Positions 1 to 24,331 of a stretch of 64,000 bases of DNA are shown one piece after another; within the stretch, counting starts at the first letter, position 1; each line of letters begins with the position of its first letter. A program made the translations under genes and the position numbers. The notes under the pieces were generated by a model, which had not been told where the DNA came from, made no database searches, and was given only the letters and a program-made list of their open reading frames with translations. Source of the stretch: Candidatus Latescibacterota bacterium (lineage in GTDB: Bacteria > Latescibacterota > UBA2968 > UBA8231). The stretch lies in the NCBI GenBank assembly GCA_965242865.1, contig CBDETK010000013.1:4064001-4128000 (forward strand), written 5' to 3'.

Positions 1-534
1 AACTCGTTGTCCATAGAGGCCGAGCCGGTAGATGCGTACTCCCTAAACGATAGGGCGATTACGAGGATTCCGACAAAGATAGGCGTAGGTGCGCTGACGA
101 CGTTAGCGACAACAGTCATACTAGCCGAAACAATATTTCAACCAAAAGATAACTTTACAGAAGAAAATGCTCTGTTTTCAAAGGAAGACGAAGCCTACCT
201 TATATCCCTCTCTTTCGGACTACTTGTCGGATACCCTCTTGGCGTGTACTTGGCCGATCCGGTGGAGAGCTCCTGCTGGATGACATTCGTGGGGGGGTAT
301 GGTCTGGCTCTGGGAGGGTGGGCGACCGGAAGCGATCTGATCGCTGGGGTGGTTGTTTCTGGGGCTCCAATAATGGCGTCGGAGCTATCCCGGCTACTGC
401 CCAAGCCGTTTCGCAATCCCAACCCATTCAAATGGCTATTCGGAACGTTTGGTCAGCCTAGCCCCCGCGTATCTTTCGGGTTGGCGCCGCAGCCCCAAAG
501 GGGCCTGTCGGCCAGAGCCACGCTCCGCTTCTAA
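1..534 (+). CDS. Hypothetical membrane or outer-membrane-associated protein, probably 5'-truncated by the window edge
   Basis: Frame is open from base 1; Gly-rich hydrophobic segments; C-terminus ARATLRF has alternating residues and a terminal Phe. Confidence 0.5.
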   Translation, partial: NSLSIEAEPVDAYSLNDRAITRIPTKIGVGALTTLATTVILAETIFQPKDNFTEENALFSKEDEAYLISLSFGLLVGYPLGVYLADPVESSCWMTFVGGYGLALGGWATGSDLIAGVVVSGAPIMASELSRLLPKPFRNPNPFKWLFGTFGQPSPRVSFGLAPQPQRGLSARATLRF

Positions 535-868
535 TTCCCATGAGGCTAATGACCGCTGCCACGACCCTGTTTGCCGTAAGCACGGTAGAGGAGGCGTCGC
601 TGACCGCACCGCCCGCGCCGACGCTGGTATGCCGCTGGCGTCTGAGTTATATTATACCGCTTGAGGAGGCCACGGCGGCCAAATCACCTTGCTGCGCTGG
701 CGAAAGCCAGCCACAGAACGCGCCTAATACAGGGGTATTATATAATGTATAGTCAATCGTCGGCGAGCAGATCGCAATGCACCCGACCCCCTTGCTGCGC
801 TGAAGGATAAGGGGCCGCGAGGTGGCGGTATGAAGACGATCCAAGCAAAAAGCGGAGGTCCATAGCGA

Positions 869-3283
869 ATGCTCGGAAGAAAAAATAGGAACCCGAACCA
901 AGAGATCGAAGAGTATCGGGATTTAATGCAGGTCCCGGACCGCTTTGAGAACGGCTTTACGATCAAGGCCGTCCTCGGCGTGTTCTTCGTCGCCTTTATC
1001 ATGGTGCCGGGCAATATGTACCTGAGCCTGATGATCGGCGGCTCTTTGGGGGCGGCGGCCGAGTGGGTGACGATCATCCTCTTCGCCGAAATCACCAAAC
1101 GCTCCTTTTCCTCCCTTCGTCGCCAAGAAGTCTATGTGCTGTTCTACGTGGCCGCCTCCCTGATCGCGGCTGAGACCGGTGCCTTTGAGGGCTTGCTCTA
1201 CAACCAGTACTTGGTGCAATCGCCGGCCGCCAAGCAGTTCGGCATCACCAAGCTGATTCCCACCTGGGTAGCGCCGCAGCCCGACTCCCTCGCGATCATC
1301 GAGCGCACCTTCCTGCACTCGGATTGGGCGATGCCGATCGTGCTCCTCGTCTTGGGGATGATCATCTCGCGCGTCAACTGGTTCACCATGTCGTACGCGC
1401 TCTTCCGGCTCAGCTCCGACTACGAGCGCCTGCCCTTCCCCTTCGCGCCCGTCAACGCGCAAGGCGCGACAGCACTGGCCGAGACGACCCAAGGACTTGA
1501 GACGTGGCGCTGGCGAGTATTTTCGGCCGGGGCGATGATCGGCTTGGTCTTTGGCACGATTTACGTGGCCCTGCCGGCCATTACCGGCGCGCTGCTGACC
1601 GAGCCGATCCAACTCATCCCCATCCCCTTTGTTGACTTCACCCAAGTCACCGGCAACTTCATCCCAGCCACCCCGCTCGGATTTACCGCGCACTTGGGGC
1701 CGATCTTTACCGGGTTGGTGGTGCCGTTCTGGGGCGTGGTCGGCACCTTTATCGGCGTGGTCGTCGCCTCAATTGCCAATCCGCTGCTTTACACTTGGAC
1801 GCCGCCGTGGCGCGAGGAGCCGTACCTGAACTTGTGGCAGCAAGGCATGGGCACGGTCGAGACCTTCTTCGTCAACAACGTGGATTTCTGGATGAGCTTT
1901 GGCATTGGCACCACCGTCGCCATCGCCATCATTGGCATCTATCAGGTCGTTCAGAGCATCCGCGGGGCTAGGGCCAACGCCAGCGACGACAGCCCCCGCA
2001 GCTTTGCCGCTCCCGCCGGCCGCGGCGATTTCCCGATATGGTTGGCACTGGCCCTCTACGCCTTGGCCACGGCTGGGCTGATCGGCATCGCCGCTTGGCT
2101 GCTGCCGGGCATTGCCCAATTTATATGGTTCTTCCTCTTCTTTGGTTTCGTCTTCACGCCCTTTCAGTCCTTTGTCAACGCCCGCCTAGTGGGGATGGTG
2201 GGGCAGACAGTGGACATCCCCTTCGTGCGCGAGGCCACGATCATCCTGTCGGGGTATCGCGGCGTTGACATCTGGTTCATTCCGTTTCCTTTGGGCAACT
2301 ACGGCGCCCAAACCATGAAGTTCCGCGAAATCGAGCTGACCGGCACCCAGTTTACCAGCATCATCCGCGCCGAGATTTTCATGGTGCCCATCGTGCTGTT
2401 CACCAGCTTTCTCTACGGCTCCTACATCTGGAAACTGGCACCGATCCCGTCGGCCTCCTACCCCTATGCCCAGCTAATCTGGCGGCTGCGCGCCTACCAG
2501 CAATGCCTCTTTATCACCGGGACCATGCGCAGCGAACTGGCCATCGATAAGGACCGGGCCGGCTGGACGCCGGCCAATCTAATCGAGAACGAGTGGTGGT
2601 ACTGGCGCGTGCGGCTGGTGGATCAAGAGTGGCTCGACTCCAGCGGCAAGCGCGGCCAAGTCGGCCCGTGGATGCCGACCCAAGTGTTCTACTCGTACTT
2701 TGAGCAGGGCGCGCCCGACATTGTCGCCGAGCGCTACCTGCGCGACGCCCGGCAGGCCGACGAGGAAATTGTCGAGGGCCTGCCGGGCATTGCCCCGGTC
2801 GGGCCGGCCATGGACACCATCATTCGCGATCCCCGCCCGACCCTCGAAGTGCAGATCGAGCGCGCCGTGCCGGCCGGCTGGTCCTTTTACTTTGAGGTCG
2901 ATACCGATCCGCTCTTTACCAGCTCTTGGATCCAGCGATCCACGGACGTGCCTTGGCTCTTTAGGGCGCTGAAAACAGAGGTCATCGCCTTTGGGGCTGG
3001 CTTTGGGCTGGTGAGTTTCATTCTGCTGTCCATTCTCGGGCTGCCGATCCTGCTGATCTTTGGCTTTGTGCGCTCGCTGACGTCGCTGCCGCACTTCGTG
3101 GTGACCGAGATCATCGGCGCCTTCTTGGCCCGCTACTACTTCTGGAACAAGTACGGGCGGCAAGAGTGGCGGCAGTTTGCCCCGATTCTGGCGGTGGGCT
3201 TTTCCTGCGGCATGGCCTTGATGGGCATGGCGTCCGTGGGAATCGCCCTGATCCAGAAGTCGGTCTCCGTGCTGATCTTCTAG
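869..3283 (+). CDS. OPT/YSL-like oligopeptide transporter family membrane protein with a ~145-aa soluble insertion
   Basis: 804 aa with many TM helices; N-terminal GFTIKAVLG...YLSL pattern and ERLPFP motif; GGAGGT SD at 854-859; hydrophilic beta-rich insert encoded at ~2525-2955. Confidence 0.7.
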   Translation: MLGRKNRNPNQEIEEYRDLMQVPDRFENGFTIKAVLGVFFVAFIMVPGNMYLSLMIGGSLGAAAEWVTIILFAEITKRSFSSLRRQEVYVLFYVAASLIAAETGAFEGLLYNQYLVQSPAAKQFGITKLIPTWVAPQPDSLAIIERTFLHSDWAMPIVLLVLGMIISRVNWFTMSYALFRLSSDYERLPFPFAPVNAQGATALAETTQGLETWRWRVFSAGAMIGLVFGTIYVALPAITGALLTEPIQLIPIPFVDFTQVTGNFIPATPLGFTAHLGPIFTGLVVPFWGVVGTFIGVVVASIANPLLYTWTPPWREEPYLNLWQQGMGTVETFFVNNVDFWMSFGIGTTVAIAIIGIYQVVQSIRGARANASDDSPRSFAAPAGRGDFPIWLALALYALATAGLIGIAAWLLPGIAQFIWFFLFFGFVFTPFQSFVNARLVGMVGQTVDIPFVREATIILSGYRGVDIWFIPFPLGNYGAQTMKFREIELTGTQFTSIIRAEIFMVPIVLFTSFLYGSYIWKLAPIPSASYPYAQLIWRLRAYQQCLFITGTMRSELAIDKDRAGWTPANLIENEWWYWRVRLVDQEWLDSSGKRGQVGPWMPTQVFYSYFEQGAPDIVAERYLRDARQADEEIVEGLPGIAPVGPAMDTIIRDPRPTLEVQIERAVPAGWSFYFEVDTDPLFTSSWIQRSTDVPWLFRALKTEVIAFGAGFGLVSFILLSILGLPILLIFGFVRSLTSLPHFVVTEIIGAFLARYYFWNKYGRQEWRQFAPILAVGFSCGMALMGMASVGIALIQKSVSVLIF

Positions 3284-3284
3284 C

Positions 3285-4277
3285 ATGGGCGATTGGGTGG
3301 ATTTCGCGTGGCAGGGGCTGCGGTTGTCCGTGCCGGGCGACTGGAATCTCGGCCGGGTTGACGGCGACTTTGAAAAGGGCTACGCCCGGCTCGACGACGC
3401 CGAGATCGTGCGCGCCGAGATCGAATGGCGGCGTCTCAGAAGCCGCGGCGAGGCCCTGCGCCTGACCGAGCTGGTCGACCGCTACTTGGCCAACCTGCAA
3501 AAGAAGGCCCAAAAGGCCGATGCCCCCTTTGAAGTCCAGCGCCGCGCCCGGTTCCTCAAAAACAAGCAATTCCTCCAAGGCCGCGAGTACGAGGTCTTTA
3601 TATGGGAGGCCGATTTCCGCGCGTACAACCTCGCGCTGGCCTTGGAGTCTGGGCGGGTTGTGCTCCTGCGCGTGCTGGCCCGGCTCGATGAGTTTTTGCC
3701 CGACCAAGCCGAGGCCGTGTTCAGCTCGCTCGCCGACCAAGAAGCCGAGGCCGCGCACCTGTGGAGCGTGTACGGCTTGCGGTTTTTCGCCCCCAGCGAC
3801 CTCAAGCTGCAAAGCCATTCCCTCAAGTCGGGGCACCTCCAGTTGGAGTTTACCCGCGGCAAACAGACGCTGCGGGTCCATCGGTTGAGCATGGCCCGAA
3901 TCATGCTCAAAGGCGCGGCCATCCAAGACTGGTATCCGGTCTTTTTTAAGAAGCCGTTGCGCGACTTGGTGGTGGATGTCGTGCCAGAAGCCGTGCAAGG
4001 CTGCGAGGGCATTCGCGTCGAGGGGCGGCCGCGCAGCCGCTGGCGTCAACTGCTGCGTCCCCTGCCCTTTATGAACCCGAGGCCGCGCCTGTATCTTCGG
4101 GGGCGCGTCTGGCGCGATGCCAGCCTCGACAAAATCGCCATCGTCGAGCACCTCTACCGCAAGAAAGACCTACAAGACGATCTCGTCGCCAAGGTAGTAG
4201 ATGGGCATTTTATCGAAAAACAAGGGACCCAAGCTGAGCCGGGCCGCCATGCTGGCGTCGCGGCCAACGCGCAATGA
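3285..4277 (+). CDS. Conserved hypothetical protein with two similar domains (PsbP/Mog1/DcrB-like start motifs)
   Basis: Starts 1 nt after the transporter stop; internal repeat FAWQGLRLSVPGDWNL versus WSVYGLRFFAPSDLKL. Confidence 0.65.
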   Translation: MGDWVDFAWQGLRLSVPGDWNLGRVDGDFEKGYARLDDAEIVRAEIEWRRLRSRGEALRLTELVDRYLANLQKKAQKADAPFEVQRRARFLKNKQFLQGREYEVFIWEADFRAYNLALALESGRVVLLRVLARLDEFLPDQAEAVFSSLADQEAEAAHLWSVYGLRFFAPSDLKLQSHSLKSGHLQLEFTRGKQTLRVHRLSMARIMLKGAAIQDWYPVFFKKPLRDLVVDVVPEAVQGCEGIRVEGRPRSRWRQLLRPLPFMNPRPRLYLRGRVWRDASLDKIAIVEHLYRKKDLQDDLVAKVVDGHFIEKQGTQAEPGRHAGVAANAQ

Positions 4278-4632
4278 CTCCCTGCGCTGGGAACCCAACG
4301 ACAACGGCGAAATCCAGGTCTTTATAACGCGCCAAGAGACCTGGAAGGTGCGGCTGCTGTCCAAGTTTTTCTACATCCCCAAACAGCGCAAAATCACCCT
4401 CGACGAGGTCGGCAGCGAGGTCTGGCGGATGTGCAACGGCCGCAACTCAGTCGGCAAGATGATCGACCTGCTCAGCGACCAGTACCAGCTCAACCGCAAG
4501 GAGGCCGAAGTCTCCCTGCTCCAGTATTTGAAAACCCTCGGGCAGAAGCGCTTTATCGGCTTTGTGCTAGAGGGCGACGACAGGCCGCCCAACCGCGGCG
4601 CGGCCAGCGGAAAGAAATGGCAAAAGAAATAA
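4201..4632 (+). CDS. PqqD family / RiPP recognition element (RRE) protein
   Basis: LDEVGSEVWRMCNGRNSVGKMIDLLSDQYQLNRKEAEVSLLQYLKTLGQKRFI matches the PqqD winged-helix pattern; overlaps the upstream gene. Confidence 0.8.
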   Translation: MGILSKNKGPKLSRAAMLASRPTRNDSLRWEPNDNGEIQVFITRQETWKVRLLSKFFYIPKQRKITLDEVGSEVWRMCNGRNSVGKMIDLLSDQYQLNRKEAEVSLLQYLKTLGQKRFIGFVLEGDDRPPNRGAASGKKWQKK

Positions 4633-5237
4633 AGAGGGGCGAGCGCTGGGCTCGTCCCTCTTTTCGTCGGCACTCGCACCGGGCCGCCCGCTTCCTCTCG
4701 CACGCGCTCAATCCCGCGCTGTTGGCGCTGTTGGTATTCGGCGTTCAAGCACACGGGCAGGACGCTTGGCTCGCCGGCGCGGTGGCGATCGGGGCCTTCT
4801 CCTTGATCCCCGGGTTGCTCCTCTGGCGCTTGGTGCGGTCGGGCTATCTCGACCAAGCCTATACAGACGACCTCAGCAAGCGCGCCACCCTGCTCTTGTT
4901 GGGTGCGCTGTGCTATGCGTTGGGGACGGCCGCCCTCTGGGGAATCGACGCCCCGCCGCTAATGCGAGTCACGGCCGCGGCTTGCGTGGTCAGTACGCTC
5001 TTGGTTTGGTGGATCAATCGCTCCTACAAAATCAGCATTCACGCGGCTGGTGTTGGGGGGGCAACCTGCGTACTGTTGATCAGCAGCGGCAGCGCGGCGT
5101 GGCCCTGTTTATTGAGTTGGCCGGCCGTTGCTTGGGCGCGGCTTTACCTGCGGGCGCATACGCCCATGCAGCTCGGAGCCGGCGGTGCGCTGGGCGCGGG
5201 GAGCATGGCCCTGCTGTACAGTGCTTTCATACCGTGA
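4617..5237 (+). CDS. PAP2-like (phosphoesterase-related) integral membrane protein
   Basis: About 6 TM segments; KISIHAAG and WARLYLRAHTPMQL resemble PAP2 C2/C3 motifs; start moved to ATG 4617. Confidence 0.65.
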   Translation: MAKEIKRGERWARPSFRRHSHRAARFLSHALNPALLALLVFGVQAHGQDAWLAGAVAIGAFSLIPGLLLWRLVRSGYLDQAYTDDLSKRATLLLLGALCYALGTAALWGIDAPPLMRVTAAACVVSTLLVWWINRSYKISIHAAGVGGATCVLLISSGSAAWPCLLSWPAVAWARLYLRAHTPMQLGAGGALGAGSMALLYSAFIP

Positions 5238-5251
5238 CGCGAGCGCGGCAG

Positions 5252-7420
5252 ATGGACCAATCGTACAAAGGCTTTATCGATCGCCTGACTTACCACAACC
5301 CGGAAAACGGCTATACCATTGCGCGCTTAGTCGTAGAGGGCCAGCGCGAGCGGATCGCAATCGTGGGGACGCTGGCCTCCGTCCAAGAGGGCGAGAGCGT
5401 CGAAGTGGCCGGCGCGTGGACCAATCATCCCAAATACGGCAAGCAATTCAAGGTCGAGCACTACAAGGCCGTTTATCCCTCGACCCTTGAAGGGATGCAA
5501 AAGTACCTCGGGTCCGGTCTGATCAAAGGCGTCGGGGCAAAATCGGCCAAGCGCATCGTCGAGCACTTTGGCGCGGAAACGCTCGACATCATCGACGCAG
5601 ATCCCCGTCGGCTAGCGGAAGTGCCCAAGCTGGGCCAAAAGAGAGTCGAGCTGATTGCCGCGGCTTGGGACGAGCAGCGGCAGATCAAGGACGTGATGGT
5701 CTTTTTGCAGTCGCACGGGATTACCACCGGCTACGCAGTGAAAATTTTTAAGACCTACGGTCAGCAGGCCATTCAAAAGGTCCGCCGCGATCCCTATCGC
5801 TTGGAGCGCGATGTGGATGGAATCGGCTTCCGCATCGCCGACCGCATTGCCCAGCGCTTGGGACTCGGCCGCGACGCCCCCGAGCGCGTACAGGCCGGCA
5901 TCCGCTACCTGCTCTCCCAAGCAGCCGACGAGGGCCACGTGTACCTGCCGGCCGTCCAAATGATGGAGCGGGCTGTCGAAATTTTGGCCATTGACGCCGA
6001 GCTGTTGCCGCCGGCCTTAGAGGCTCTGCGCGCCGACGACGGCGTGGTCACCGAAGATATGCACTACTATCTGCCGCCGCTCCACCGCGCCGAAGTGGGC
6101 GCGGCCTCGTCGCTAAAGCGGCTTTTGCGCACGCCGGCCCAAGAGTTGACCGTGCCGGCAGAAGACGAGGACGAGCTGACGTTGGCCCCGGCGCAAAAAC
6201 AGGCGGTGGCATGGGTTGCCACGAGCAAAGTGCTGGTGCTGACCGGCGGCCCGGGCACGGGCAAGACGACGGTCACGCGGCGCATCTTGCGCCTGTTGGA
6301 GGAAGGCGGCCTCGCGGTTGGGTTGTGCTCGCCTACGGGCCGAGCGGCCAAGCGGCTGAGCGAAGCCAGCGGGCGCACGGCCAAGACCATTCACCGGCTG
6401 CTGGAGTTTCAGCCGGGCGAGCGGCAATTCAAAAGAGGCTACGACAACCGCCTCGAGCTCGACGCGCTGATCGTCGATGAGGCTTCCATGATCGACGTGG
6501 TGCTGATGAACGCGCTCCTGCGCGCCTTGCCCGACCGCGCTCGGGTGGTGCTCGTCGGCGACATTGACCAGCTGCCCTCGGTCGGGCCGGGCAACGTGCT
6601 CCGCGACATCATCGACTCCGCAGAAGTGCCGGTGGTGCGCCTGACGCAGATTTTTCGCCAAGCCCAAAAAAGCCACATCATCCGCAACGCGCACCGCATC
6701 AACAGCGGCGAAATGCCCATCGTCGAGAACCAGGCGGGCGCGGATTTCTACTTTATCCAAGAAGGCGACCCAGAGCGGGTGGTCGAGCTGGTGGAAGAGC
6801 TGTGCGCCACGCGCCTGCCCAGCTATCGGGGGTGGGACCGACGCGCCGACATCCAAGTGCTCGCGCCCATGTACCGCGGCGAGACCGGCGCACTCAACCT
6901 CAACCAACGCCTGCAACAGCGTCTCAACCCGCACGGCCCAGTGCATCGCCATCGCGGGGGCGAGTTCCGGGTGGGGGATAAGGTCATGCAGGTCAAAAAC
7001 GACTACGACAAGGGCGTTTTTAACGGCGACATCGGCACGGTCGAGCGGCTCGACGCAGAAAAGCAGGTGCTCTACGTGCTCTTTGACCACACCTTGGAAT
7101 ACGATCAAGTGGATCTCGACCAGCTGACCCTCGCCTACGCCATCAGCATCCACCGCTCGCAGGGGTCGGAATTTCCCGTGGTGGTCCTGCCGCTGACGAC
7201 CCAGCACTACGTGATGCTCCAGCGCAACCTGCTCTACACGGCCATTACCCGCGCCAAGCAGATGATCGTCATCGTCGGCACTTCCAAGGCCCTCAAGCTG
7301 GCCATTGCAAACGACCAAGTGGCCCAGCGGTACACCACGCTCAAAGAACGGCTGTGCGACGAGGTCGGCGCGGTGCTGCAAGCGGGGCAAGCACCCGAGA
7401 AAGGCCAAAACCATCTATGA
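5252..7420 (+). CDS. recD2: ATP-dependent RecD-like DNA helicase (RecD2)
   Basis: N-terminal YHNPENGYTIARL and HPKYGKQF, HhH motifs, Walker A GGPGTGKT, DEASM, AYAISIHRSQGSEF, LLYTAITRA; start moved to ATG 5252. Confidence 0.93.
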   Translation: MDQSYKGFIDRLTYHNPENGYTIARLVVEGQRERIAIVGTLASVQEGESVEVAGAWTNHPKYGKQFKVEHYKAVYPSTLEGMQKYLGSGLIKGVGAKSAKRIVEHFGAETLDIIDADPRRLAEVPKLGQKRVELIAAAWDEQRQIKDVMVFLQSHGITTGYAVKIFKTYGQQAIQKVRRDPYRLERDVDGIGFRIADRIAQRLGLGRDAPERVQAGIRYLLSQAADEGHVYLPAVQMMERAVEILAIDAELLPPALEALRADDGVVTEDMHYYLPPLHRAEVGAASSLKRLLRTPAQELTVPAEDEDELTLAPAQKQAVAWVATSKVLVLTGGPGTGKTTVTRRILRLLEEGGLAVGLCSPTGRAAKRLSEASGRTAKTIHRLLEFQPGERQFKRGYDNRLELDALIVDEASMIDVVLMNALLRALPDRARVVLVGDIDQLPSVGPGNVLRDIIDSAEVPVVRLTQIFRQAQKSHIIRNAHRINSGEMPIVENQAGADFYFIQEGDPERVVELVEELCATRLPSYRGWDRRADIQVLAPMYRGETGALNLNQRLQQRLNPHGPVHRHRGGEFRVGDKVMQVKNDYDKGVFNGDIGTVERLDAEKQVLYVLFDHTLEYDQVDLDQLTLAYAISIHRSQGSEFPVVVLPLTTQHYVMLQRNLLYTAITRAKQMIVIVGTSKALKLAIANDQVAQRYTTLKERLCDEVGAVLQAGQAPEKGQNHL

Positions 7421-8187
7421 ACGAGTACCACATTGCCAACGAGAACCGCTGGAATCGGGCCGCGCCTCAGTACGCGGAAAAGCACGACAAAAAAGGGACG
7501 TGGCGGATTGCCCACCAGCAGCGAGAAGTCGTCTTCTGCGAGCGAGAATTGGAACTGATGGGGCCGGTTCGCAATCGAGACGTTTGCGTTCTCGGCAGCG
7601 GCGATAACCTCGCGGTGTTCGCCTTGGCGGGCATGGGCGCTCGCGTGACCTCGGTCGATATTTCCCGCGAACAGCTAAAAGTGGCGCGGCAGCGGTCCGC
7701 CGAACTCGGCTTGCGCGTCCAGTACGTCAAAGCGGACGTAACCAACCTCAGCGGCTTGGCGAGTGCGGCCTTTGATCTGGTGTACACGGGCGGTCACGTC
7801 GCAGTCTGGGTGGCCGATCTGCGTGCGTACTACCGCGAGGCCATTCGCATTCTGCGCCCCAGCGGCCTGCTCTTGATCAACGAATACCACCCCTTCAGAA
7901 GGATATGGAAGGACCAAAAGACGGCCTTAGAGGTTGGGTATAGCTACTTTGACCATGGACCTCACCAGTACAACACCTCCGCAGAGCTGCTGTCCGACCG
8001 GTCTGCTGGCGACACCGTGCAGTACGAATTTCACTGGACGGTCGCTCAGTATCTCAAGGCGGTTATCGAGCAAGGCGTGGAATTGGTCGAGTTTGAGGAG
8101 CTGGGGGACGAGGCCGAAGGCTGGGAGTATGCTCCACTGGCGGGGCTGCCGCAAATGCTGTTGATCGCCGGCCGAAAGCGGCCCTAG
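7417..8187 (+). CDS. Class I SAM-dependent methyltransferase
   Basis: Motif I VCVLGSGD, VDIS, FDLVY, RILRPSGLL and EYHP; ATGA overlap with the recD2 stop. Confidence 0.85.
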   Translation: MNEYHIANENRWNRAAPQYAEKHDKKGTWRIAHQQREVVFCERELELMGPVRNRDVCVLGSGDNLAVFALAGMGARVTSVDISREQLKVARQRSAELGLRVQYVKADVTNLSGLASAAFDLVYTGGHVAVWVADLRAYYREAIRILRPSGLLLINEYHPFRRIWKDQKTALEVGYSYFDHGPHQYNTSAELLSDRSAGDTVQYEFHWTVAQYLKAVIEQGVELVEFEELGDEAEGWEYAPLAGLPQMLLIAGRKRP

Positions 8188-8999
8188 CCGTCGCGCTCCT
8201 CGACGAGGAGGGTATGCACCCCGGCCTCGTCCCAGCGTTGCTGGTCTTGCGGCTGGATGCGATAGCCGATCACAACCGCCAACGCATCCTGCAAAAACAC
8301 CGCGTTTAAGGCATCGGCCGCTTGTCGCGCCCGCTCCAAGTCGCGTTGGCTGATGGCGTTAGATACCTCAACGGCGACCCACACGGGCGTGCGATTTGCC
8401 TTGCGCTGCGCCCGGACGATGAGGTCGGTCGCGTTAATGCGGGTTTCCTGCCCGTCGTCAATGACGCCCGCATCAAAGGCTTCTTCCACCGGCTGGAACA
8501 GTTCGGGATGGGTGTCTTGGACCGGACTTTGCAGAACCTGCGCCCGGCGCAACCCCAGCCGCTGGCTGATCAGCGGTCGAATCCGCCGATGGAGCTTCAC
8601 TTCCAACATGTCGCCCTTGAGTATGGCTAAGTCGGTTTCTACCCGCGTCACACGGGCTTTGAGTTCAGCCACGTCGGCTTCTATCCGCGTCATGCGAGTT
8701 TTAAGTTCAGCCACGTCGGCTTCTATCCGCGTCATGCGGGTATTGAGTTCAGCCACGTCGGCTTCTATCCGCGTCATGCGGGTATTGAGTTCAGCCATGT
8801 CGGTTTCTACCCGCGTCATGCGAGTTTTGAATTCAGCCACGTCGGCTTCTATCCGCTCCAAGCGGATGGGCATGCCGAGGAATTCGTTGGTCAGCAAGGC
8901 CCGCAACAACAGGGTCTGGGCGTTGGGGTTGGCTTGCAATTCGGCGATGATGCGAGCTACCAAGGACTCGGAGTCAAGGGAAGAGGGTATCGTAGTCAT
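8184..8999 (-). CDS. Heptad-repeat coiled-coil protein with C-terminal PD-(D/E)xK-like domain
   Basis: Repeated TRMTRIEADVAEL(N/K) units; C-terminal DLIV...VAVEVS...DLERA; SD AGAGGT upstream. Confidence 0.7.
   Translation of the reverse strand: MTTIPSSLDSESLVARIIAELQANPNAQTLLLRALLTNEFLGMPIRLERIEADVAEFKTRMTRVETDMAELNTRMTRIEADVAELNTRMTRIEADVAELKTRMTRIEADVAELKARVTRVETDLAILKGDMLEVKLHRRIRPLISQRLGLRRAQVLQSPVQDTHPELFQPVEEAFDAGVIDDGQETRINATDLIVRAQRKANRTPVWVAVEVSNAISQRDLERARQAADALNAVFLQDALAVVIGYRIQPQDQQRWDEAGVHTLLVEERDG
8631..8856. repeat. 42-bp tandem repeat, about 5.4 copies, inside the coiled-coil gene
   Basis: Unit GTCGGCTTCTATCCGCGTCATGCGGGTATTGAGTTCAGCCAC starts at 8631, 8673, 8715, 8757, 8799 and 8841 (partial). 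Confidence 0.95.
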
Positions 9000-9074
9000 G
9001 GCTTACCTCTGTTGCATGGTTGGCGGTCTCTGCATTTGACCGCGGTGCTTTCGGGGCACTAGAAAATAATATAG

Positions 9075-9253: not shown

Positions 9254-12200
9254 TCAAGCGACCGCCACCTCGTCGTCCTCAACCGTTACCGCGCCGTCCT
9301 GCACCAGCGTTCTCAGGGCGGCTCCCACCTTCTGCTTCGCTTTGGCCGTTGCGCGGCGAAAGCCCAGCAGCGAGAGGGCCTCAGCAATGGCCGCTTCTTC
9401 CGACAGGCTAAAGGCCGCCCGGATTACCTCGATCAAGGCCACGCAGATTTCCTCGTCGGGCACCAGCTCGATGTTTCTCGCGGTGGAGGGCAGGTCCGAG
9501 CGGTCGCGCACCCGGACCGGCTTGTCGCTGTCGGCAAACAGGAAGTCGCCTGCTAAGTGGAGGAGGCCGTTCTGGTGACCGAATTCGGCGGCCCGCTTTA
9601 TGTGCCCTAGCATTCTCGACCCCACGCGGGCAAAGCCGGCCGATTCAGCGAGCCGCCGCGCCGCCTCGGTCAGGTGAACGGGGCCTTCAATGTCGATCAC
9701 CTGGCGCATGGCTTGAGCGACATCGGCTAGGGGCAACTCGTGGATCTCGGCTGCAATGCCCAAATCGCCCGTGGCCAACACATAGAGGTCGGCCTGTAAG
9801 TTGTTGTCCGTCGGCTCGTCGCGATTGATGGGCTGGGGCGGCGCTGGGGTGGGAGATGCGGGAGGTTCTTCGGCCACGCGCAGGGCCTGAGCAATGGAAT
9901 CGGCGAGGCGGGCGCTTTCTCTGTGGGGATCCCGGAACCAGTCGGTGCTCCAAATGCGATGGAAGCGCCAGCCCAAGCCCTCCAGCACGCTTTGCCGCAA
10001 ACGGTCGCGGTCGCGGGCTGTTGCTGAGCTGTGATAACTCGCGCCGTCGCACTCTACGGCCAAAACGTAGCGGCCGGGCTCCTGGGGGTCGCGCACGGCA
10101 ATGTCAATATAAAAGCCCGCGGAACCCACTTGCGGCTCAATGTCGTAGCCTAGCCGGCGAATGGCGTCGATCACGGCCTCTTCAAACGGCGAATCCGGTG
10201 CCTTTCCGGTCTCGTCCGGGCGGTCCTCTAGTTCCCCGGTCTGGGCGTAGTGCAAGAAGCTCTTCAAGGCGCGCACCCCAAACGGCGAATGGCCCTCGGT
10301 TTTCATGTCGTCGGCCGTAAAATTGCTAAAGACCTCCATGGCCAAGCGGGCGCGCGTGATCAGCACATTCAAGCGGCGCTCGCCTCCCTCGCGGTTCACC
10401 GGACCAAAACTCGCGCTCATATTGCCGTGGGCCGTGCGGCCATAGCCAATGCTGATGAAGATCACGTCGCGCTCATCCCCCTGCACGTTCTCCAAGTTCT
10501 TGACAAAAAAGCCCTCTAGCGCACCGGTCGCGAAAAACTCCTCGCAGCTCGGATCTAAGCGGCGCAACCGCTCGATTTCCAGCAAAATGCAGTCGCGTTG
10601 AGCGGTCGAAAACGCGACCACGCCTAAGGTCGCATCCGGGTGTGTTTGGGCGTGGCGCATGACCGCCTCGGCTACGGCGCGCGCCTCCACTGGGTTGGTG
10701 CGCGAGCTACCGCGCTCGTACACCGCCTCGGGCAGGTGATTGAACGTCAACCCCTTAGCGCGGGCATTCACCCCGGGACTGGGAAAGATCATCAAGCGGT
10801 CGCGGTAAAATTCCCGATTGGAAACGGCGATCAGGGAATCGTGTCGGCTCCGATAGTGCCAGCGCAACATGGACTCTGGGGCTCCTTGCGACACGAACAT
10901 GCTCAAAATGCTCTCAATGTCGGCGGTCTGGCTTTCTTCGTCGTCTAGCTCCAAGGCTTTGGTAAAGAAGTCGGTCGGCGGCATCTGGCGCGTGTCCCCG
11001 ACCACCACCACCTGTTTGCCGCGCAGAATCGGGCCGATTGCATCCACCACTTTCACCTGACTGGCTTCGTCAAACACCACCAAGTCAAAGTCCAACGCGC
11101 CCTGTTCCAAGTAGGTCGCCACCGACATGGGGCTCATCATAAACACGGGCTTTATTTGCTGAATCGCCCGGCCGGCTTGGGCGATGAGCTGGCGAATCGG
11201 CATATAGCGGCGCTTCTTGTTGATCTCGCGGCGAATAAGCGCCATCTGGCCGGCAGCGTTGGCGGCCGGCAAGCGGTGGTAGTGCTTTAAGACCAATGCT
11301 TCGCGGGCGTGGTGCAGCAGTTCCTCGTCCAAGCGTCTAAATTCAGCGATGGCGCTTTCGTGGCTCGCCCGATTAAACCGCTTGATCGTCTCGCTCGTGC
11401 TGTATGCCTCGTGTACCAAGCCCTCGTAATAGGCTTTCTTCAGGGAGGTCAGCAGCAGGGCTGGGGGTGCTGTCCAGTCGTAAGACAGTCGATCGATCTG
11501 TTCCAACTCGTTGGCACACAGTTTTTTTCTCAGGTGGTTGTAGTGCGCCATCGGTGCTAAGGCACCGATTTGGTCGCGCCAACGATTGAGCTCGGCTGCC
11601 AGCTCACCCAACGGCCGCTCTTCAATGGGTCGCGTTTTTATTTTTAGCCGCTGGCTCACTTCGTCAACTCGCTCTTTTAGCTCGCCCGCGGTGCGCTCGA
11701 GCGCCGCCAACGGTTCCTCGCACCCCGCGAGTTTCCCACCGCCCTGCAAGAATGTTAGCAAGCCTTCCGGCACCGCGCCCTCGCTTACTTCTCGGTGCAA
11801 CGCGCCGATCCAAGCACTGAGCGCCTTCAAGACGCCCCAATCGCTGCTCGACCCCTTCCATTGCATCCCCAACAGGCTTTCGCCCAAGGGCTCGTGCTCG
11901 GCATACAACGCGCGCCGGGCTTGGTACTTGAGGATGTCGTCGATGAGAGCCACGCATGCGTTGGCATCGGCGGGCAAGTCGCCTTTCACCAAACCTTGCA
12001 GGGTGCGGCGGGCGCGACCAAAGCTGGGAAAGATAAAGCGCCACCAGTGCCGGCCGGTGGTGGCCCACGCTTGGCGCACGCTCAACAGGTCGGCCTGCCA
12101 AGCCTGCTCGATCAATTGCGCGCGCCGCTTGTCTTGCAGGGCCGTCATTTCTTGGCCGGCTTGGAGCAGGGCCTCGATTTGCTCGCTGCGGTGTTGCCAG

Positions 12201-13882
12201 TCCGCCGCGGTCAGCGGCACGCCCGCTAAGGGCGGCGCATTCCGCACGCGCTCGCCAGCGCGGCATACAGCCCGCAGCGCGGCGAGGGTTTCCGGGCCGT
12301 CTAGACCCATCCTTTCAGATAGGGCGTCGCCCAACTTCCGGCCCTTGTCGAGGGATGCGAGTGCCTTGGTCAAGCAAGCAACGATCTCGTTTTGCTCAAT
12401 CGGCGAAACGTGCTCTAGCGTCGATTGGGCAAAGGGGCTGTGGGCCGGGGTACCCATCGTCGCTAAGTGCTCAACCAGTTCGCGCACCTGCGCGCAGGCG
12501 TTTGCAAAGCTGTCTTCGTCCCAATGGCGCAACCCGGCAAAGTCCAGCGTCGGCAGTTCGCGCCCACCGGCTTCTTGGCTCAGCTTGAGGAGGTGCCCTT
12601 GGGCATTTATATAGCTCGTTCCCGAAGTCAGGATGGGATGGTTCACCGCGCGGCAATACGCATCGAGTTGTTGGCGCAACTGGGCGTGGCGGCGTTTTTT
12701 GGCCGCGTGATTCGCCACGGCCGGCGGGCCGAGTTCGAGTGTGCGCCTCAGTTCTTGCAGGACGGCACTCTTATTGCTCTTGTGGCTGTGCAGCTCCAGC
12801 ACGGCGTCGCCCAAGTGGCACTCGTCGAGGCGGCGTTTTACCACCTCTAAGGCCGCCATCTTTTCGGCGACAAAGAGCACGGTTTTTTCGTCGGATAGGG
12901 CCTCGGCGATGATATTGGTAATGGTCTGGGATTTGCCCGTGCCCGGCGGGCCTTGGATGACCAAGTTGGAGTCTTGCTTCACCGCCAAGACCGCTTGCGT
13001 CTGGCTGGAGTCCGCGTCCAACACAAAGTGGAGATCCGCGGGCTCGACCTCGGCGCGAGGCATTGAGGGCAACCCAGTGCCGCCGCCGCCAAATCCGTCG
13101 GCGAGCAGGTTTTGCAACACCTCGTGGTCGTAGGGCTTGTGGCCTGCGGGCCAATTATCCGGGTCTAAATCCTGATACATCTGGAACTTGCCAAAGGAAA
13201 AAAACCCGAGCGCGATTTCATCGGCCTGCACCTGCCAGCGCGGCAGGTGCGCCACGCCAGCGGCCACTTCGTTTAAGTACTCATCCAGATCGAGCTCTTC
13301 CTCGAACTCCGGCAGCGTTATCTCGAACTCGCTTTTTAGCTTGTTGGCGAGCGTCAGATTCGGCCCGAGGTCGGCCTCGGTGTACGCCACCTTGTAGCGC
13401 GCTCTCGCGCTGCCGCGCTGCAAAGAAACCGGCACCAATACGAGCGGTGCTTTGCGGGGTATGGAGGAGCTTTCGGCTTCGTACCAAGTCAGAAAGCCCA
13501 AGGCCAAATACAACAGATCCACGCCCTGCTCTTGGTAGTAGCTCTCGGCCTCCGCGCTGATCTTGAGGAGGCTTTTGTCGAGCGCGTCCGCCGAGAGTTT
13601 GGTTTGCAGGCGGTTGTCGGTGTGGCGGCGGTCTGCGTCCTCGTCCTCCAAAATGCTGGGCAGTGCTTGCGGGTCGCTTTCTTCCGCTGGCGACGCCGGC
13701 ACCGGGACAAACGCCATCTGCTTTTGCTCGGCCACCAATATCCGAAACACTTCCCGCGACTTCTCGTGGATTACTGCGAGCGTTTTCGCGCCGGGACGAA
13801 AGTTGAGCAGGGTGTTGCCGCGCAAGCCCATATCCAATAATTCCGACCGGCTGACTGCGAGTTTTTCTGCTAAAGATGGCAT
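9254..13882 (-). CDS. DUF4011 - SF1 helicase - Vsr-like endonuclease - DUF3320 protein (Hhe-like anti-phage protein)
   Basis: N-terminal LLDMGLRGNTLLNF and LYLALGFLTW; GPPGTGKSQT; DEASQ; WHYRS; ENVQGDERD; SPFEE...IDIAV...VECDGASYH...RDRDRLRQSVLEGLGW; start moved to ATG 13882 (1542 aa). Confidence 0.88.
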   Translation of the reverse strand: MPSLAEKLAVSRSELLDMGLRGNTLLNFRPGAKTLAVIHEKSREVFRILVAEQKQMAFVPVPASPAEESDPQALPSILEDEDADRRHTDNRLQTKLSADALDKSLLKISAEAESYYQEQGVDLLYLALGFLTWYEAESSSIPRKAPLVLVPVSLQRGSARARYKVAYTEADLGPNLTLANKLKSEFEITLPEFEEELDLDEYLNEVAAGVAHLPRWQVQADEIALGFFSFGKFQMYQDLDPDNWPAGHKPYDHEVLQNLLADGFGGGGTGLPSMPRAEVEPADLHFVLDADSSQTQAVLAVKQDSNLVIQGPPGTGKSQTITNIIAEALSDEKTVLFVAEKMAALEVVKRRLDECHLGDAVLELHSHKSNKSAVLQELRRTLELGPPAVANHAAKKRRHAQLRQQLDAYCRAVNHPILTSGTSYINAQGHLLKLSQEAGGRELPTLDFAGLRHWDEDSFANACAQVRELVEHLATMGTPAHSPFAQSTLEHVSPIEQNEIVACLTKALASLDKGRKLGDALSERMGLDGPETLAALRAVCRAGERVRNAPPLAGVPLTAADWQHRSEQIEALLQAGQEMTALQDKRRAQLIEQAWQADLLSVRQAWATTGRHWWRFIFPSFGRARRTLQGLVKGDLPADANACVALIDDILKYQARRALYAEHEPLGESLLGMQWKGSSSDWGVLKALSAWIGALHREVSEGAVPEGLLTFLQGGGKLAGCEEPLAALERTAGELKERVDEVSQRLKIKTRPIEERPLGELAAELNRWRDQIGALAPMAHYNHLRKKLCANELEQIDRLSYDWTAPPALLLTSLKKAYYEGLVHEAYSTSETIKRFNRASHESAIAEFRRLDEELLHHAREALVLKHYHRLPAANAAGQMALIRREINKKRRYMPIRQLIAQAGRAIQQIKPVFMMSPMSVATYLEQGALDFDLVVFDEASQVKVVDAIGPILRGKQVVVVGDTRQMPPTDFFTKALELDDEESQTADIESILSMFVSQGAPESMLRWHYRSRHDSLIAVSNREFYRDRLMIFPSPGVNARAKGLTFNHLPEAVYERGSSRTNPVEARAVAEAVMRHAQTHPDATLGVVAFSTAQRDCILLEIERLRRLDPSCEEFFATGALEGFFVKNLENVQGDERDVIFISIGYGRTAHGNMSASFGPVNREGGERRLNVLITRARLAMEVFSNFTADDMKTEGHSPFGVRALKSFLHYAQTGELEDRPDETGKAPDSPFEEAVIDAIRRLGYDIEPQVGSAGFYIDIAVRDPQEPGRYVLAVECDGASYHSSATARDRDRLRQSVLEGLGWRFHRIWSTDWFRDPHRESARLADSIAQALRVAEEPPASPTPAPPQPINRDEPTDNNLQADLYVLATGDLGIAAEIHELPLADVAQAMRQVIDIEGPVHLTEAARRLAESAGFARVGSRMLGHIKRAAEFGHQNGLLHLAGDFLFADSDKPVRVRDRSDLPSTARNIELVPDEEICVALIEVIRAAFSLSEEAAIAEALSLLGFRRATAKAKQKVGAALRTLVQDGAVTVEDDEVAVA

Positions 13883-13932
13883 GTTGGTCGATTCGTCCGT
13901 CTTAAATGCACTCGGCGTAGCGCGCCCGCCCG

Positions 13933-14661
13933 TCATTCGCTGTCGCGCAACAGCCAGCGCACGGCGTTTTGCTGCAACTTCTCGTAGGCCGGGTTCCAAA
14001 GGGCGGCGATGGTGTGTCCCGGGGATACATAGCACACGCGGCCCGCGCCGTACTCGTACGCCCAAGCCGCCTCGCACGTGGTGCCCAAGTCCTGCCAAGT
14101 GTGCCCGTCGTCGTTGACGCTGACGGCCAAGATGTGGGCGGGGTCTTTGTCGTAGTGCATAAAGTGCTGCTCGTCCTCGACGACAAAGTCCGCCACGCCG
14201 CGCGTTATGGGGTGGTCGGTGCGCGTGATGTGGACGCGATAGGGACGCACCGGCGGGTGTCCTTGGGTCGCGGCGCCCAACACGTGGCGAAAGTCGCGGC
14301 TGCCCGGGGCGATGTACGTGGAATTGTGGTAGAAAAGAGCCGCCCCACCTGCCTCCACAAAGCTCCGCACGGCGCGGCCTTGGGCCTCGGTAATCCACTG
14401 CACGGGATGGGATTTTGCGGCCTCAACGGGTGGCTCGCTGACGGGCGCGGCCTCTAGGCCGTAGCCATTGGGCCAGATCATGCCGTCGCGAAAGACTATC
14501 AGCAGCCGATAGCCCGACAGGTGTTGGGCGTTGAGTAGGGAAAGCTCGTCGGTAAAATCAATGGACAATCCCGCGCCTTGGACCAAGGTGCGGCCCAAAG
14601 CCGTGCGGATGTAATCCGACGTGTGATAGCGGTCGCCCACTAGGGCAAAGGCCGTAGCCAT
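13933..14661 (-). CDS. ThuA-like (class I glutamine amidotransferase-like fold) protein
   Basis: FVEAGG..LFYH, HPITRGVADF..EDE, WAYEYGAGRVCYVSPGH; SD GAGGAG upstream of ATG 14661. Confidence 0.8.
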   Translation of the reverse strand: MATAFALVGDRYHTSDYIRTALGRTLVQGAGLSIDFTDELSLLNAQHLSGYRLLIVFRDGMIWPNGYGLEAAPVSEPPVEAAKSHPVQWITEAQGRAVRSFVEAGGAALFYHNSTYIAPGSRDFRHVLGAATQGHPPVRPYRVHITRTDHPITRGVADFVVEDEQHFMHYDKDPAHILAVSVNDDGHTWQDLGTTCEAAWAYEYGAGRVCYVSPGHTIAALWNPAYEKLQQNAVRWLLRDSE

Positions 14662-22750: not shown

Positions 22751-24331
22751 TCACGTACTCTCCACCTCAAAGGCGGCTACGGAGCGGGTCTCTCGGCTGA
22801 ACTCCACTCCAATCAGGAAGATCTCCTCGCCGCGCCCGCGATACTTGGCCGCATAGTCCCGCTCCTTCAATTGCTGGATCGCCGCCCCCGCCGACGCCTG
22901 CTCCATCACCTTGAACTCGAACAGGTACACGTTTCCATTGAACTCCACCGCCATGTCGAGGCGTCCCTCCCGGCTGCTGTCCTCCACCGTGATCGACAGC
23001 CCCAACGACGCAAAGTAGGAATAGAAGACGCTGGCGTAATAGCCCTCGTAGTGGGCGATCTCATTATTCGTATGCCACTGATAGGGAATGCTGGCAAAGA
23101 ACGCCTCGAACAGCGTTTCCAAGCCGTCAAAGTCGTTGACCAGCAGCAGGTCGTACAACCGCGCATTGTGCTCAACTTGGCGCGACGGGTTGCCCGTCAG
23201 GTGACTCAGCAAGCTATCGTTCAGGCTTTGCTGCACCTCCCGGTTGGGGTAGCCCAGCCGGTAGTACATCCGCCCGCCGCGCAACTCGGCGCACCGAATG
23301 GTCAGGTAGCCGGTCTGGAACAACAACGCCTCGGTCGCAATGTGGTCCACGTCAAACGCCGACAGCAATCCCTCGCTGCTGAGCAGGCCATCCAACGACA
23401 AGGCACTGACTCCTCGTTCCAACAACATCTCCAGCAGAAACGTCGGCGTACCCGTCTCAAACCAGTAGGCCCCGAATCGACGGTTGTAGAACAGTAGCAA
23501 CACGTCAAAGGGGTTGTACACGGCTTCCTCGCCGAGCCAGTTGTAGCCGTTGTACCACGTGCGTATTTCATCTCGGTCCAGGCCGGGCAGTTCTGAGGCG
23601 AACACCGCGTCCAAGTCCGACTCGGTGTAGCCGCAAATGGCCGAGTAGTGCGGGTTTAGGGTGATGTCGATGAGGTTGTTGAGGCCGGAAAACAGGCTGA
23701 CCTTGGAGAATTTGCTCACTCCAGTGAGGAAGGTAAACGCGATGTGTGCGTCGCAGTCCTTAATGGTCGCGTACAAGTTGCGCAAGTAGTCGCGGTTGGC
23801 GCGAGCGACTTCTGGTTCCTCCAGCGCGTCTAGAATGGGCTTGTCGTACTCGTCAATTAGCACCGCCACCGGCTGGCCAGTCTGTTGATGCAGCGTCCGA
23901 AGCAAATGCCGGAAGTAAGCCGGGGCAGTGTCGCAGCTGTCCACTTTCTCCATCGTGCCTAACTGGGCCATCGCTTCCTTGTGCAGATTGCCCGGCTCCT
24001 TGAAATGGCCGCTGCCAAAGCTCAGCCGCAGCACCGGATGGCGCACCGACCAATCCCACTGCGGATAAATGGCCAGCCCCTTAAATAAAGGCTCGTTGCC
24101 CTCGAACAGTTCCTTGAGCGTATCGAGAAACAGGCTCTTGCCAAACCGACGGGGGCGCGACAGAAAGTAGTGCTTGCCTTCGGCGACTAGCCGCGCCATG
24201 TAAGCGGTCTTATCGACGTAATAGCAATTTTCTTCCCGAATCGTGCGAAAGGTCTGAATGCCGATGGGCAGTTTGCGCTTGGCGGTCCGGGACGAACCGG
24301 GTTTTACCTTTAGCATGGTCTTGCTCCACAT
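22751..24331 (-). CDS. AAA-ATPase-like protein with C-terminal PD-(D/E)xK nuclease domain
   Basis: LPIGIQTF, YYVDKT, SRPRRFGKSL, LIDEYDKP, YWFETGTP, GRLDM...FEFK; alternative start 24316. Confidence 0.9.
   Translation of the reverse strand: MWSKTMLKVKPGSSRTAKRKLPIGIQTFRTIREENCYYVDKTAYMARLVAEGKHYFLSRPRRFGKSLFLDTLKELFEGNEPLFKGLAIYPQWDWSVRHPVLRLSFGSGHFKEPGNLHKEAMAQLGTMEKVDSCDTAPAYFRHLLRTLHQQTGQPVAVLIDEYDKPILDALEEPEVARANRDYLRNLYATIKDCDAHIAFTFLTGVSKFSKVSLFSGLNNLIDITLNPHYSAICGYTESDLDAVFASELPGLDRDEIRTWYNGYNWLGEEAVYNPFDVLLLFYNRRFGAYWFETGTPTFLLEMLLERGVSALSLDGLLSSEGLLSAFDVDHIATEALLFQTGYLTIRCAELRGGRMYYRLGYPNREVQQSLNDSLLSHLTGNPSRQVEHNARLYDLLLVNDFDGLETLFEAFFASIPYQWHTNNEIAHYEGYYASVFYSYFASLGLSITVEDSSREGRLDMAVEFNGNVYLFEFKVMEQASAGAAIQQLKERDYAAKYRGRGEEIFLIGVEFSRETRSVAAFEVEST

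Follow-up and report, generated by a model that had tools for sequence, protein, structure and literature searches.

A PqqD-Family Protein Paired with a Tandem PsbP-like Protein Beside an OPT-Superfamily Membrane Cassette in Latescibacterota

PqqD-like domains, also called RiPP recognition elements (RREs), are class-independent markers in the mining of gene clusters for ribosomally synthesised peptides that carry post-translational modifications (RiPPs). A locus of a Candidatus Latescibacterota bacterium raises the question of what such a domain may do where none of the usual modifying enzymes accompanies it. The locus lies at the beginning of a 64,000-nucleotide stretch, here called the window (positions 4,064,001 to 4,128,000 of contig CBDETK010000013.1, assembly GCA_965242865.1; G000:C13:4064001-4128000 in our genome coordinates), and consists of three genes that encode an OPT-like membrane protein (P0001), a tandem-domain protein (P0002) and a PqqD/RRE protein (P0003). 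This locus is not a RiPP gene cluster. P0001 belongs to the OPT superfamily and is the membrane subunit of that kind in an envelope cassette that recurs and is undescribed. As judged by sequence comparison, P0002 and P0003 always co-occur, are sometimes fused, and recur as a pair beside this cassette in lineages that are distantly related. All parts come from known superfamilies (OPT, Mog1/PsbP and PqqD/RRE, and MacB/FtsX for the neighbouring protein), and their combination is not described. In the reading tentatively preferred here, the pair is a cytoplasmic, peptide-binding accessory of the membrane machine.

The three open reading frames (ORFs) all lie on the forward strand. P0001 (869..3283, 804 aa) is separated from P0002 (3285..4277, 330 aa) by a single nucleotide, the junction reading TAG-C-ATG, and P0003 (4201..4632, 143 aa) begins at an ATG at 4201, so that it overlaps the end of P0002 (TGA 4275-4277) by 77 nt. 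The tight packing claimed in the preliminary description of this DNA is therefore confirmed. Within the overlap (4201..4277, + strand), different frames encode the disordered tail of P0002 and the conserved N-terminus of P0003. The overlap is regarded as real because a conserved N-terminal motif of P0003 (MxxFATRKKPKLxREAML in the homologue alignment) fixes its start at 4201; it is kept in the main clade and not in divergent loci, the L067 locus having an overlap of 4 nt. Homologue comparison indicates that all three ORFs are real genes. Across 69 related loci, obtained by scanning one genome per species, identity to the homologues is 66-98% for P0001 (65 of 69 loci) and 49-95% for P0003 (all 69), and 120 homologues of P0002 were found, with E-values down to 1e-206.

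P0003 contains a PqqD (RRE) domain at residues 65-119 (4393..4557, + strand; Pfam PF05402), flanked by a conserved basic N-terminal extension (residues 1 to about 60) and a C-terminal ASGKKW tail. Its match to PF05402 exceeds the cut-off (E 1.3e-10, 41.9 bits against 23.4), as does that of the L067 orthologue (36.3 bits). At the sequence level, the P0003 profile also matches solved PqqD and lasso B1 proteins, namely 5sxy (E 4.3e-5), 9x90 (5.2e-5), 5v1u (1.6e-4) and 3g2b (2.5e-4), aligning to the beta3-alpha1-alpha3 part of these structures. The assignment of the 143-aa protein to the PqqD/RRE family thus holds. P0003 nevertheless differs from discrete PqqD-family RREs, such as PqqD itself or the lasso B1 protein TbiB1, in several respects. 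It has 143 residues and not about 90-100, carries conserved tails at both ends, and remains below the specific NCBIfam cut-offs (29.4 against 80 bits for lasso_PqqD_Bac, 27.9 against 46 for PQQ_PqqD and 28.4 against 100 for the GeoRSP PqqD family). Moreover, it has no nearby partner enzyme, is paired or fused with a PsbP-like tandem, and occurs phylum-wide in the manner of a housekeeping gene. In its passages on PF05402, a 2025 survey of RREs states that 21% of the proteins of this family exceed the size cut-off for discrete RREs and have nothing else annotated by Pfam, a group that it regards as open for discovery (PMC12710340); an association of the P0003 type with PsbP or OPT proteins is not mentioned in those passages.

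The lack of a biosynthetic partner extends beyond the immediate neighbours. Pfam scans of the larger ORFs across the 64-kb window revealed no radical SAM, YcaO, lasso or lanthipeptide enzyme, in agreement with the first look at the sequence, which had reported no RiPP enzyme there. RiPP enzymes were likewise not found in the conserved neighbour clusters of the 69 loci, nor in 39 ORFs of divergent loci. Among the clusters and ORFs examined, a standard RiPP enzyme thus occurs in none of the 69 Latescibacterota loci and in one of 14 distant loci. No precursor peptide was noted near P0003, where no systematic search for small precursor ORFs was made. The genome to which the window belongs contains exactly two PqqD-domain genes. 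One is P0003, and the other encodes a 96-aa protein in a canonical lasso-peptide operon about 420 kb away, outside the window (G000:C13:3645013-3647746, minus strand; L086:4014-6747). This operon comprises the 96-aa PqqD protein (B1), a 146-aa Transglut_core3 protein (B2) and a 653-aa Asn_synthase-type cyclase. In a BLASTP comparison, the lasso RRE and P0003 are unrelated (E 3.3).

The partner of P0003, P0002, is predicted to consist of two Mog1/PsbP-like domains (residues ~1-153 and ~155-312) and a disordered tail (312-330). This architecture comes from an AlphaFold2 (AF2) model with a mean local confidence (pLDDT) of 84.9 and a pTM of 0.80, and both halves have fold matches, which bears out the earlier suggestion of a tandem-domain protein. 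In Foldseek, the tandem immunity proteins TplEi/Tli4 of type VI secretion systems (T6SSs) were retrieved at E 3e-6 and PsbP at about 1e-4. According to VIA-align, domain 1 resembles CyanoP (2xb3, Z 12.4, root-mean-square deviation 3.2 over 140 aligned residues), Mog1 (5yfg, Z 10.9), DcrB (10.8), PA94 (1tu1, 10.2) and SciW (6xrb, 9.8), while domain 2 resembles LpqN (6e5d, Z 9.5) and Mog1 (1jhs, 9.3). At the level of sequence families, P0002 has no Pfam match at E<=1, DUF1795 included, and its profile matches no PDB sequence below E 0.4. Conserved residues in the wide P0002 family are limited to W9, P17, W20, P170, L175, F189, R200 and L208, and no catalytic-type constellation is found among these positions. 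In the sequences of P0002 and P0003, no signal peptide and no hydrophobic segment is visible; for lack of the former, both look cytoplasmic.

The closest known parallels of P0002 are TplEi/Tli4 and PA3488, with which it shares the fold of each half and the tandem arrangement; PsbP, Mog1, DcrB and Eag/SciW are single-domain kin. It differs from Tli4 and TplEi in that identity is about 10%, it has no Pfam family, no signal peptide is visible (the protein is probably cytoplasmic), no lipase effector adjoins it, and its partner is an RRE; its neighbours are the OPT-like gene (65 of 69 loci) and the PqqD gene (69 of 69). Eag/DUF1795 chaperones shield transmembrane helices of T6SS effectors, and the likeness of P0002 to them is confined to the fold (the SciW match mentioned above), since no DUF1795 match exists. 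A complex prediction for P0002 (A1) with P0003 (A4) gave scores of 0.00 and 0.29 against a mark of 0.32, which speaks neither for nor against binding.

P0001 is a polytopic membrane protein without a direct Pfam or NCBIfam match at E<=1, and its relationship to the OPT superfamily becomes visible through intermediates. When 1.84 billion representatives were searched with a profile built from P0001 and its paralogues (A3), 1112 matched at E<=1e-3, many of them 615-690 aa long, and 437 did so at <=1e-30. When 19 of these relatives were scanned, 8 matched PF03169 (OPT) at E<=1.6e-4 and 6 reached the cut-off of 25.8 bits, the best scores being 65.5 bits (P0265) and 64.2 bits (P0198). An hhalign comparison of A3 with P0198 gave a probability of 100 and E 5e-58, with 32% identity over 611 columns (residues 24-798). 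Because its relatives match PF03169 and the alignment to P0198 spans the protein, P0001 is a divergent OPT-superfamily protein carrying an insert of about 150 residues. The description of P0001 as OPT-like, made from the sequence alone, is upheld as regards superfamily membership; a direct match to the PF03169 hidden Markov model is not obtained.

The insert (residues ~553-700; 2525..2968, + strand) appears as a gap in the alignment to P0198, is not present in the relatives of ~620-690 aa, and is predicted to be beta-rich. In the AF2 model of P0001, with an overall pLDDT of 46.6, the insert alone is well predicted (about 85, beta strands); VIA-align on this poor model gave weak matches to Ig-like sandwiches for the insert (Z 5.5-5.8) and generic helical matches with Z<8 for the protein. 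The P0001 profile matched no PDB sequence below E 0.4. Mean column identity is 74% over 20 sequences of the phylum, and some relatives have PDZ or Reg_prop domains after the core. A conserved acidic tail, NPNQEIEEYRDLMxxPxxFExGF, marks the N-terminus; in the form ELEEYRxLMxxPxxFEEGF, it occurs in nearly all of 80 OPT-like relatives, whether or not the pair is nearby. Compared with the OPT family (PF03169, TC 2.A.67), P0001 is homologous over the whole transmembrane core through intermediates and differs in the missing direct Pfam match, the insert and the acidic motif. Two irregular loci may be added as side observations: the P0001 gene is tandemly duplicated in L044 (475-2874 and 3102-5507), and in L038 (5574-7972), from a low-coverage metagenome-assembled genome (MAG), the orthologue is spread over two overlapping ORFs (483 and 397 aa), which could be a frameshift or an assembly error.

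The association of the three genes extends across the phylum. Each of the 69 loci belongs to a MAG that bears the label Latescibacterota, or else the label Gemmatimonadota or Planctomycetota together with the same gene set. P0003 lies downstream of P0002 in 69 of 69 loci, and P0001 upstream of P0002 in 65, directly adjoining it in 64 and 2 kb away in L045; of the remaining loci, L046 is cut at a contig end and L067-L069 are without P0001 at the locus. This gene-neighbourhood survey establishes the co-conservation of the trio. P0002 was found in 132 of 151 sampled genomes of the phylum (44 of 52 of high quality), nearly always in one copy. It is missing from all 13 genomes of family f10. In five near-complete genomes of this family (94-97%), no match to the P0001 profile was obtained (0 of 5), and the P0003 profile produced two weak generic PqqD matches alone (E 1.6e-4 and 9.1e-4). 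Word-indexed protein searches (A1, A5) and a cluster look-up returned the same clade alone, under the labels Latescibacteria, Gemmatimonadota and 'bacterium'. Separately, the look-alike clusters of the Atlas (score 0.97) have Armatimonadota and Poribacteria as their commonest phyla.

The trio is itself part of a larger arrangement. Upstream of P0001, 60 of the 69 loci carry a giant gene, whose product of about 1600 aa contains a weak Peptidase_M28 match, MacB_PCD and FtsX; its FtsX permease is fused to about 1000 extra residues that include an M28-like domain. A membrane protein with DUF6785/DUF6784 precedes the giant, and BLASTP between it and P0001 gives no more than an N-terminal hint at E 0.036. 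In the window's genome, such cassettes are repeated, with 5 giant paralogues, 5 P0001 paralogues and at least 10 DUF6785 paralogues in them. The giant paralogues lie at 0.87, 1.51, 2.49, 4.05 and 4.48 Mb (G000:C13), with a P0001 paralogue near four of the five, and the single P0002-P0003 pair of the genome is carried by the 4.05-Mb cassette alone.

In this genome, a block of 6.4 kb with small secreted-protein genes is inserted exactly between the giant's stop codon and the ribosome-binding site of P0001 (G000:C13:4058624-4064752; L071:8624-14752), reaching into the window within its positions 1-868; it is not present in L002. The block encodes 7-8 small proteins with signal-peptide-like N-termini, which belong to multi-copy families. 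As a side observation, these families are also arrayed at ~0.70, 0.73-0.74 and 1.05 Mb, one family of 227 aa being 83-90% identical in tandem.

Outside Latescibacterota, the cassette was followed with one pattern-based metagenome scan, using a broad OPT-like alignment (A6), which yielded at least 80 loci of relatives of about 680 aa. Of the 69 metagenome loci with upstream sequence, 46 have a giant homologue directly upstream of the OPT-like gene, 16 more have DUF6785 between the two or upstream, and 5 of the remaining 7 have the giant at another spacing. Downstream, 37 of 56 loci have an ATPase gene of the LolD/DevA/FtsE/MacB type that starts no more than 400 nt past the OPT-like gene, and a second ATPase is often found 5' of the giant. 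In the 69 Latescibacterota loci, no LolD-type ATPase is found except for one weak match (L005, E 1.5e-6). The window's genome has 30 ABC ATPase matches overall, but no such ATPase close to the locus. Since the Latescibacterota loci are without a LolD-type ATPase in cis, the pair holds the position that the ATPase gene takes elsewhere.

The pair also recurs in this wider set. Both a P0002-like and a PqqD-like ORF are present in 14 of the 44 metagenome loci with at least 3 kb of downstream sequence, and one without the other in none. These P0002-like ORFs are far more divergent, with E-values of 1e-7 to 1e-31 (A1 or A5) against 2.8e-44 for the weakest full-length match within the phylum. Three gene orders are seen: the pair directly follows the OPT-like gene (L161), follows a conserved secreted protein of about 210 aa (L145, L146, L148, L155-L157, L159 and L162), or follows the ATPase (L119, L126, L135 and L141). 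An adjoining ATPase is missing in 10 of the 14 pair-bearing loci. In two loci, P0002 and P0003 are fused as one ORF, of 503 aa in L126 (8699-10210) and 459 aa in L135 (9265-10644), where P0002 profile positions 8-305 are followed by P0003 positions 13-121, with the Pfam PqqD domain at the C-terminus. Of the evidence available, these naturally occurring fusions point most strongly to P0002 and P0003 acting as a single unit. The secreted-type protein before the P0002-like gene, characteristic of one clade, is ~210-230 aa long with a signal-peptide-like N-terminus and 42-53% mutual identity, and matches no Pfam or NCBIfam family; it is encoded at L145:8374-9069, L148:8060-8695, L156:3714-4403, L159:8190-8828 and L162:7957-8640, and also in L146, L155 and L157. 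A further candidate, a P0001-P0002 fusion in genome G114 (a 1706-aa open frame over P0002), was rejected, as tblastn placed the two in different frames in 4 of 4 loci checked.

The described systems closest to the cassette are the Type VII ABC (ATP-binding cassette) systems MacB, FtsEX and LolCDE, given that the giant contains MacB_PCD and FtsX and that the ATPases of other lineages are of the LolD/DevA/FtsE/MacB type. The cassette differs from them in the fusion of the permease to about 1000 extra residues including the M28-like domain, in the OPT-superfamily proteins alongside, and in the absence of an ATPase in cis in Latescibacterota. A full-text literature search gave no mention of DUF6785, of DUF6784/PF20581/PF20580, or of PqqD with PsbP, and PqqD with FtsX or MacB was not found among the matches listed. 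The location of an OPT-like gene between the MacB/FtsX giant and, in other lineages, an ABC ATPase suggests that its product is a subunit of a larger machine and not a stand-alone proton symporter. OPT proteins have 16-17 transmembrane segments, and prokaryotic members were considered peptide transporters from genome context, according to the parts of an earlier study consulted here (PMC3061005).

How the pair might serve this machine can be outlined as follows. P0002 and P0003 would together make up a single soluble unit in the cytoplasm. It would dock on the membrane machine from the cytoplasmic side, with the PsbP-like tandem as a protein-protein scaffold or docking surface. In the groove of the RRE, an extended peptide would be held by beta-strand addition, the candidate ligand being either a peptide handled by the transporter or a conserved cytoplasmic tail of a membrane subunit, for instance the N-terminus of the OPT-like protein with its ELEEYRxLMxxPxxFEEGF motif. 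In this way, the pair may tie gating, regulation or hand-over to whether a peptide is bound. Among Latescibacterota, the 1-nt gap and the 77-nt overlap would couple translation tightly, so that the three proteins are made in stoichiometric amounts. In its general form, this reading sees in P0002-P0003 a cytoplasmic, peptide-binding pair that has no RiPP role and is accessory to an undescribed membrane machine; we favour it tentatively and with somewhat less than even confidence, its mechanism being inferred. Its bolder form is doubtful and carries about half that weight: that an RRE was taken from natural-product biosynthesis to become a fixed cytoplasmic subunit of an undescribed giant MacB/FtsX-M28 and OPT-superfamily machine, working with a tandem PsbP-like scaffold and reading the OPT-like tail or a transported peptide.

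Several observations weigh against the favoured reading. In L067-L069, the pair stands amid housekeeping genes (lexA, obg, dprA, nuo, gatB and lpxK), while the P0001 homologues of the same genomes lie elsewhere, each directly 3' of a MacB_PCD/FtsX protein. The window's genome has one pair for five cassettes; therefore, the majority of cassettes do without a pair of their own in cis. Among the 44 informative metagenome loci, 30 are without the pair within 6 kb. The N-terminal motif of the OPT-like protein is present regardless of the pair, and the RRE is therefore not singled out as its partner. That this tail is cytoplasmic would follow from predictions for OPT proteins in general, as given in the consulted parts of PMC3061005, and both the topology of P0001, whose model is poor (pLDDT 46.6), and any binding among these proteins are putative. 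Finally, one distant locus has a B12-binding radical SAM gene (L156:2221-3717), located between the OPT-like gene and the genes for the secreted, P0002-like and PqqD-like proteins.

The L156 gene is also among the points in favour of the view that P0003 does serve RiPP-type maturation in trans, either as a leader-peptide chaperone or with P0002 as a modifying or scaffold protein of a new kind; export or re-import of the product would fall to the OPT-like protein. Such a role would suit a bona fide PF05402 member that resembles solved PqqD and lasso B1 chaperones, and the large share of oversized PF05402 proteins noted in the RRE survey leaves room for it. It is quite unlikely, for homologues of the radical SAM gene are missing from the window's genome, from all 69 phylum loci and from the other 79 loci of the metagenome set, and no RiPP enzyme was found among the larger ORFs of the window, in the conserved clusters of the 69 loci or in the 39 divergent-locus ORFs. 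Additionally, the pair is near single-copy and phylum-wide in the manner of a housekeeping gene, no catalytic-type residues are conserved in P0002, and the lasso cluster of the genome has its own unrelated 96-aa RRE. In another view, P0002-P0003 would be a cytoplasmic housekeeping module unlinked to the membrane protein, with adjacency a matter of inherited gene order. The separated pair in L067-L069 agrees with this, and the RecD2 and PAP2-like neighbours further downstream are syntenic too, without an obvious functional link. We nonetheless regard an unlinked module as unlikely, because the pairing with the OPT-like/giant cassette recurs in far more divergent loci and in three gene orders, the f10 family lacks P0002 (0 of 13) together with P0001 (0 of 5) and has two weak generic P0003 matches, and the 1-nt gap and overlap point to translational coupling.

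Two further explanations accept the link to the membrane and assign the pair another task. If the pair is an assembly chaperone, hydrophobic or tail segments of the very large polytopic subunits would be shielded by the PsbP/Mog1-like tandem until their membrane insertion, in the manner of Eag/DUF1795 proteins, and the RRE would hold an unfolded segment. The resemblance of P0002 domain 1 to SciW and PA94 (Z 9.8 and 10.2) fits this role, both proteins lack a signal peptide and look cytoplasmic, and a single-copy pair could serve several paralogous cassettes. This fold match is generic to the Mog1/PsbP superfamily, in which PsbP, Mog1 and DcrB score equally or better, DUF1795 is not matched in Pfam, and binding is here a proposal alone, which leaves a chaperone role with a low probability. 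Alternatively, in cassettes that have no ATPase, the pair might substitute for, or regulate, an energy-coupling subunit at the docking site used elsewhere by a LolD/FtsE-type ATPase. The downstream position taken by the ATPase in 37 of 56 metagenome loci is held by the pair in Latescibacterota, where no such ATPase is found in the 69 loci apart from the weak L005 match, and 10 of the 14 pair-bearing metagenome loci have no adjoining ATPase. We consider this explanation very unlikely, given that ATPase and pair stand in succession in L119, L126, L135 and L141, that P0002 and P0003 have neither a nucleotide-binding motif nor a matching Pfam family, and that ATPases may come in trans from among the 30 ABC ATPase matches of the genome.

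If the favoured accessory-pair reading is true, a phylum-wide RRE without a biosynthetic partner would be a clear case of the domain serving outside RiPP pathways and, in RiPP mining, would turn up systematically as a false positive. The locus also exposes a widespread, unstudied cassette of giant M28-MacB/FtsX proteins, OPT-like proteins and LolD-type ATPases, of which each Latescibacterota genome has several copies. The placement of OPT-superfamily proteins, with an FtsX-type permease on one side and ABC ATPases on the other, suggests that a transporter may be built or powered in a new way. The phylum is uncultured and, by run labels, includes sponge-associated forms.

Of the sequence words sampled from the window, a fraction of 0.65-0.70 occurs in runs labelled sponge metagenome. 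Contigs of three metatranscriptome libraries lie on all three genes with 90-99% likeness; since they are mostly 90-95% alike, they come mostly from relatives and not from the window's strain. Such contigs cross the P0001/P0002 junction (X15 record 5, X16 record 13, X17 records 21-22) and the P0002/P0003 overlap (X15 record 7, X16 record 15, X17 record 23), and their loose ends at 862 resemble the 3' end of the giant gene and the ribosome-binding site of L002. They give weak support to co-transcription of the trio and are no proof of a single transcript, as RNA libraries can hold DNA. Contig cover is missing over 500-827 and 4764-5091, and from run X19, which proves nothing. A hairpin with a GC-rich core stem of 12 bp and a U-run (4626..4665, + strand) takes in the stop codon of P0003 (4630-4632) and is contained in the next ORF's 5' end. 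With -28.8 kcal/mol and z -4.6 (0 of 200 shuffles equally stable), it is a possible terminator or attenuator. A scan for consensus promoters and terminators gave no more sites than in shuffles and did not list this hairpin, and Rfam gave no match at E<=1 in 1-9000.

The next ORF encodes a PAP2-like membrane protein (4617..5237, + strand). Its overlap with P0003, reported at the outset, most likely amounts to 16 nt, as homologue comparison favours ATG 4617 over GTG 4431 as the start, and the Pfam PAP2 match falls below the cut-off (E 0.017, 15.3 bits against 27.2). Its homologue cluster covers 60 loci, in many of which it lies about 1.7 kb from P0003, often with a flagellin gene between them. 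On this comparison, the PAP2-like gene appears as a loosely linked neighbour outside the core. RecD2 (TIGR01448, E 7e-267) is next downstream, from ATG 5252. The flagellin gene (Flagellin_N and Flagellin_C) is convergent between the PqqD and PAP2-like genes in 29 of 69 loci, for example at L023:9398-10597 (minus strand), and at one locus an IS1595-family transposase (L043:10956-12008) is located between the flagellin and PAP2-like genes.

Elsewhere in the window, the minus strand encodes a 1714-aa protein with DUF4011, an AAA_11/AAA_12 helicase, an MTES_1575 endonuclease and DUF3320 (9254-14398), a predicted AAA-ATPase_like/PDDEXK_9 protein (22751-24331) and a UPF0175-domain protein (25255-26055), the last two of which may be mobile-element or defence-related.

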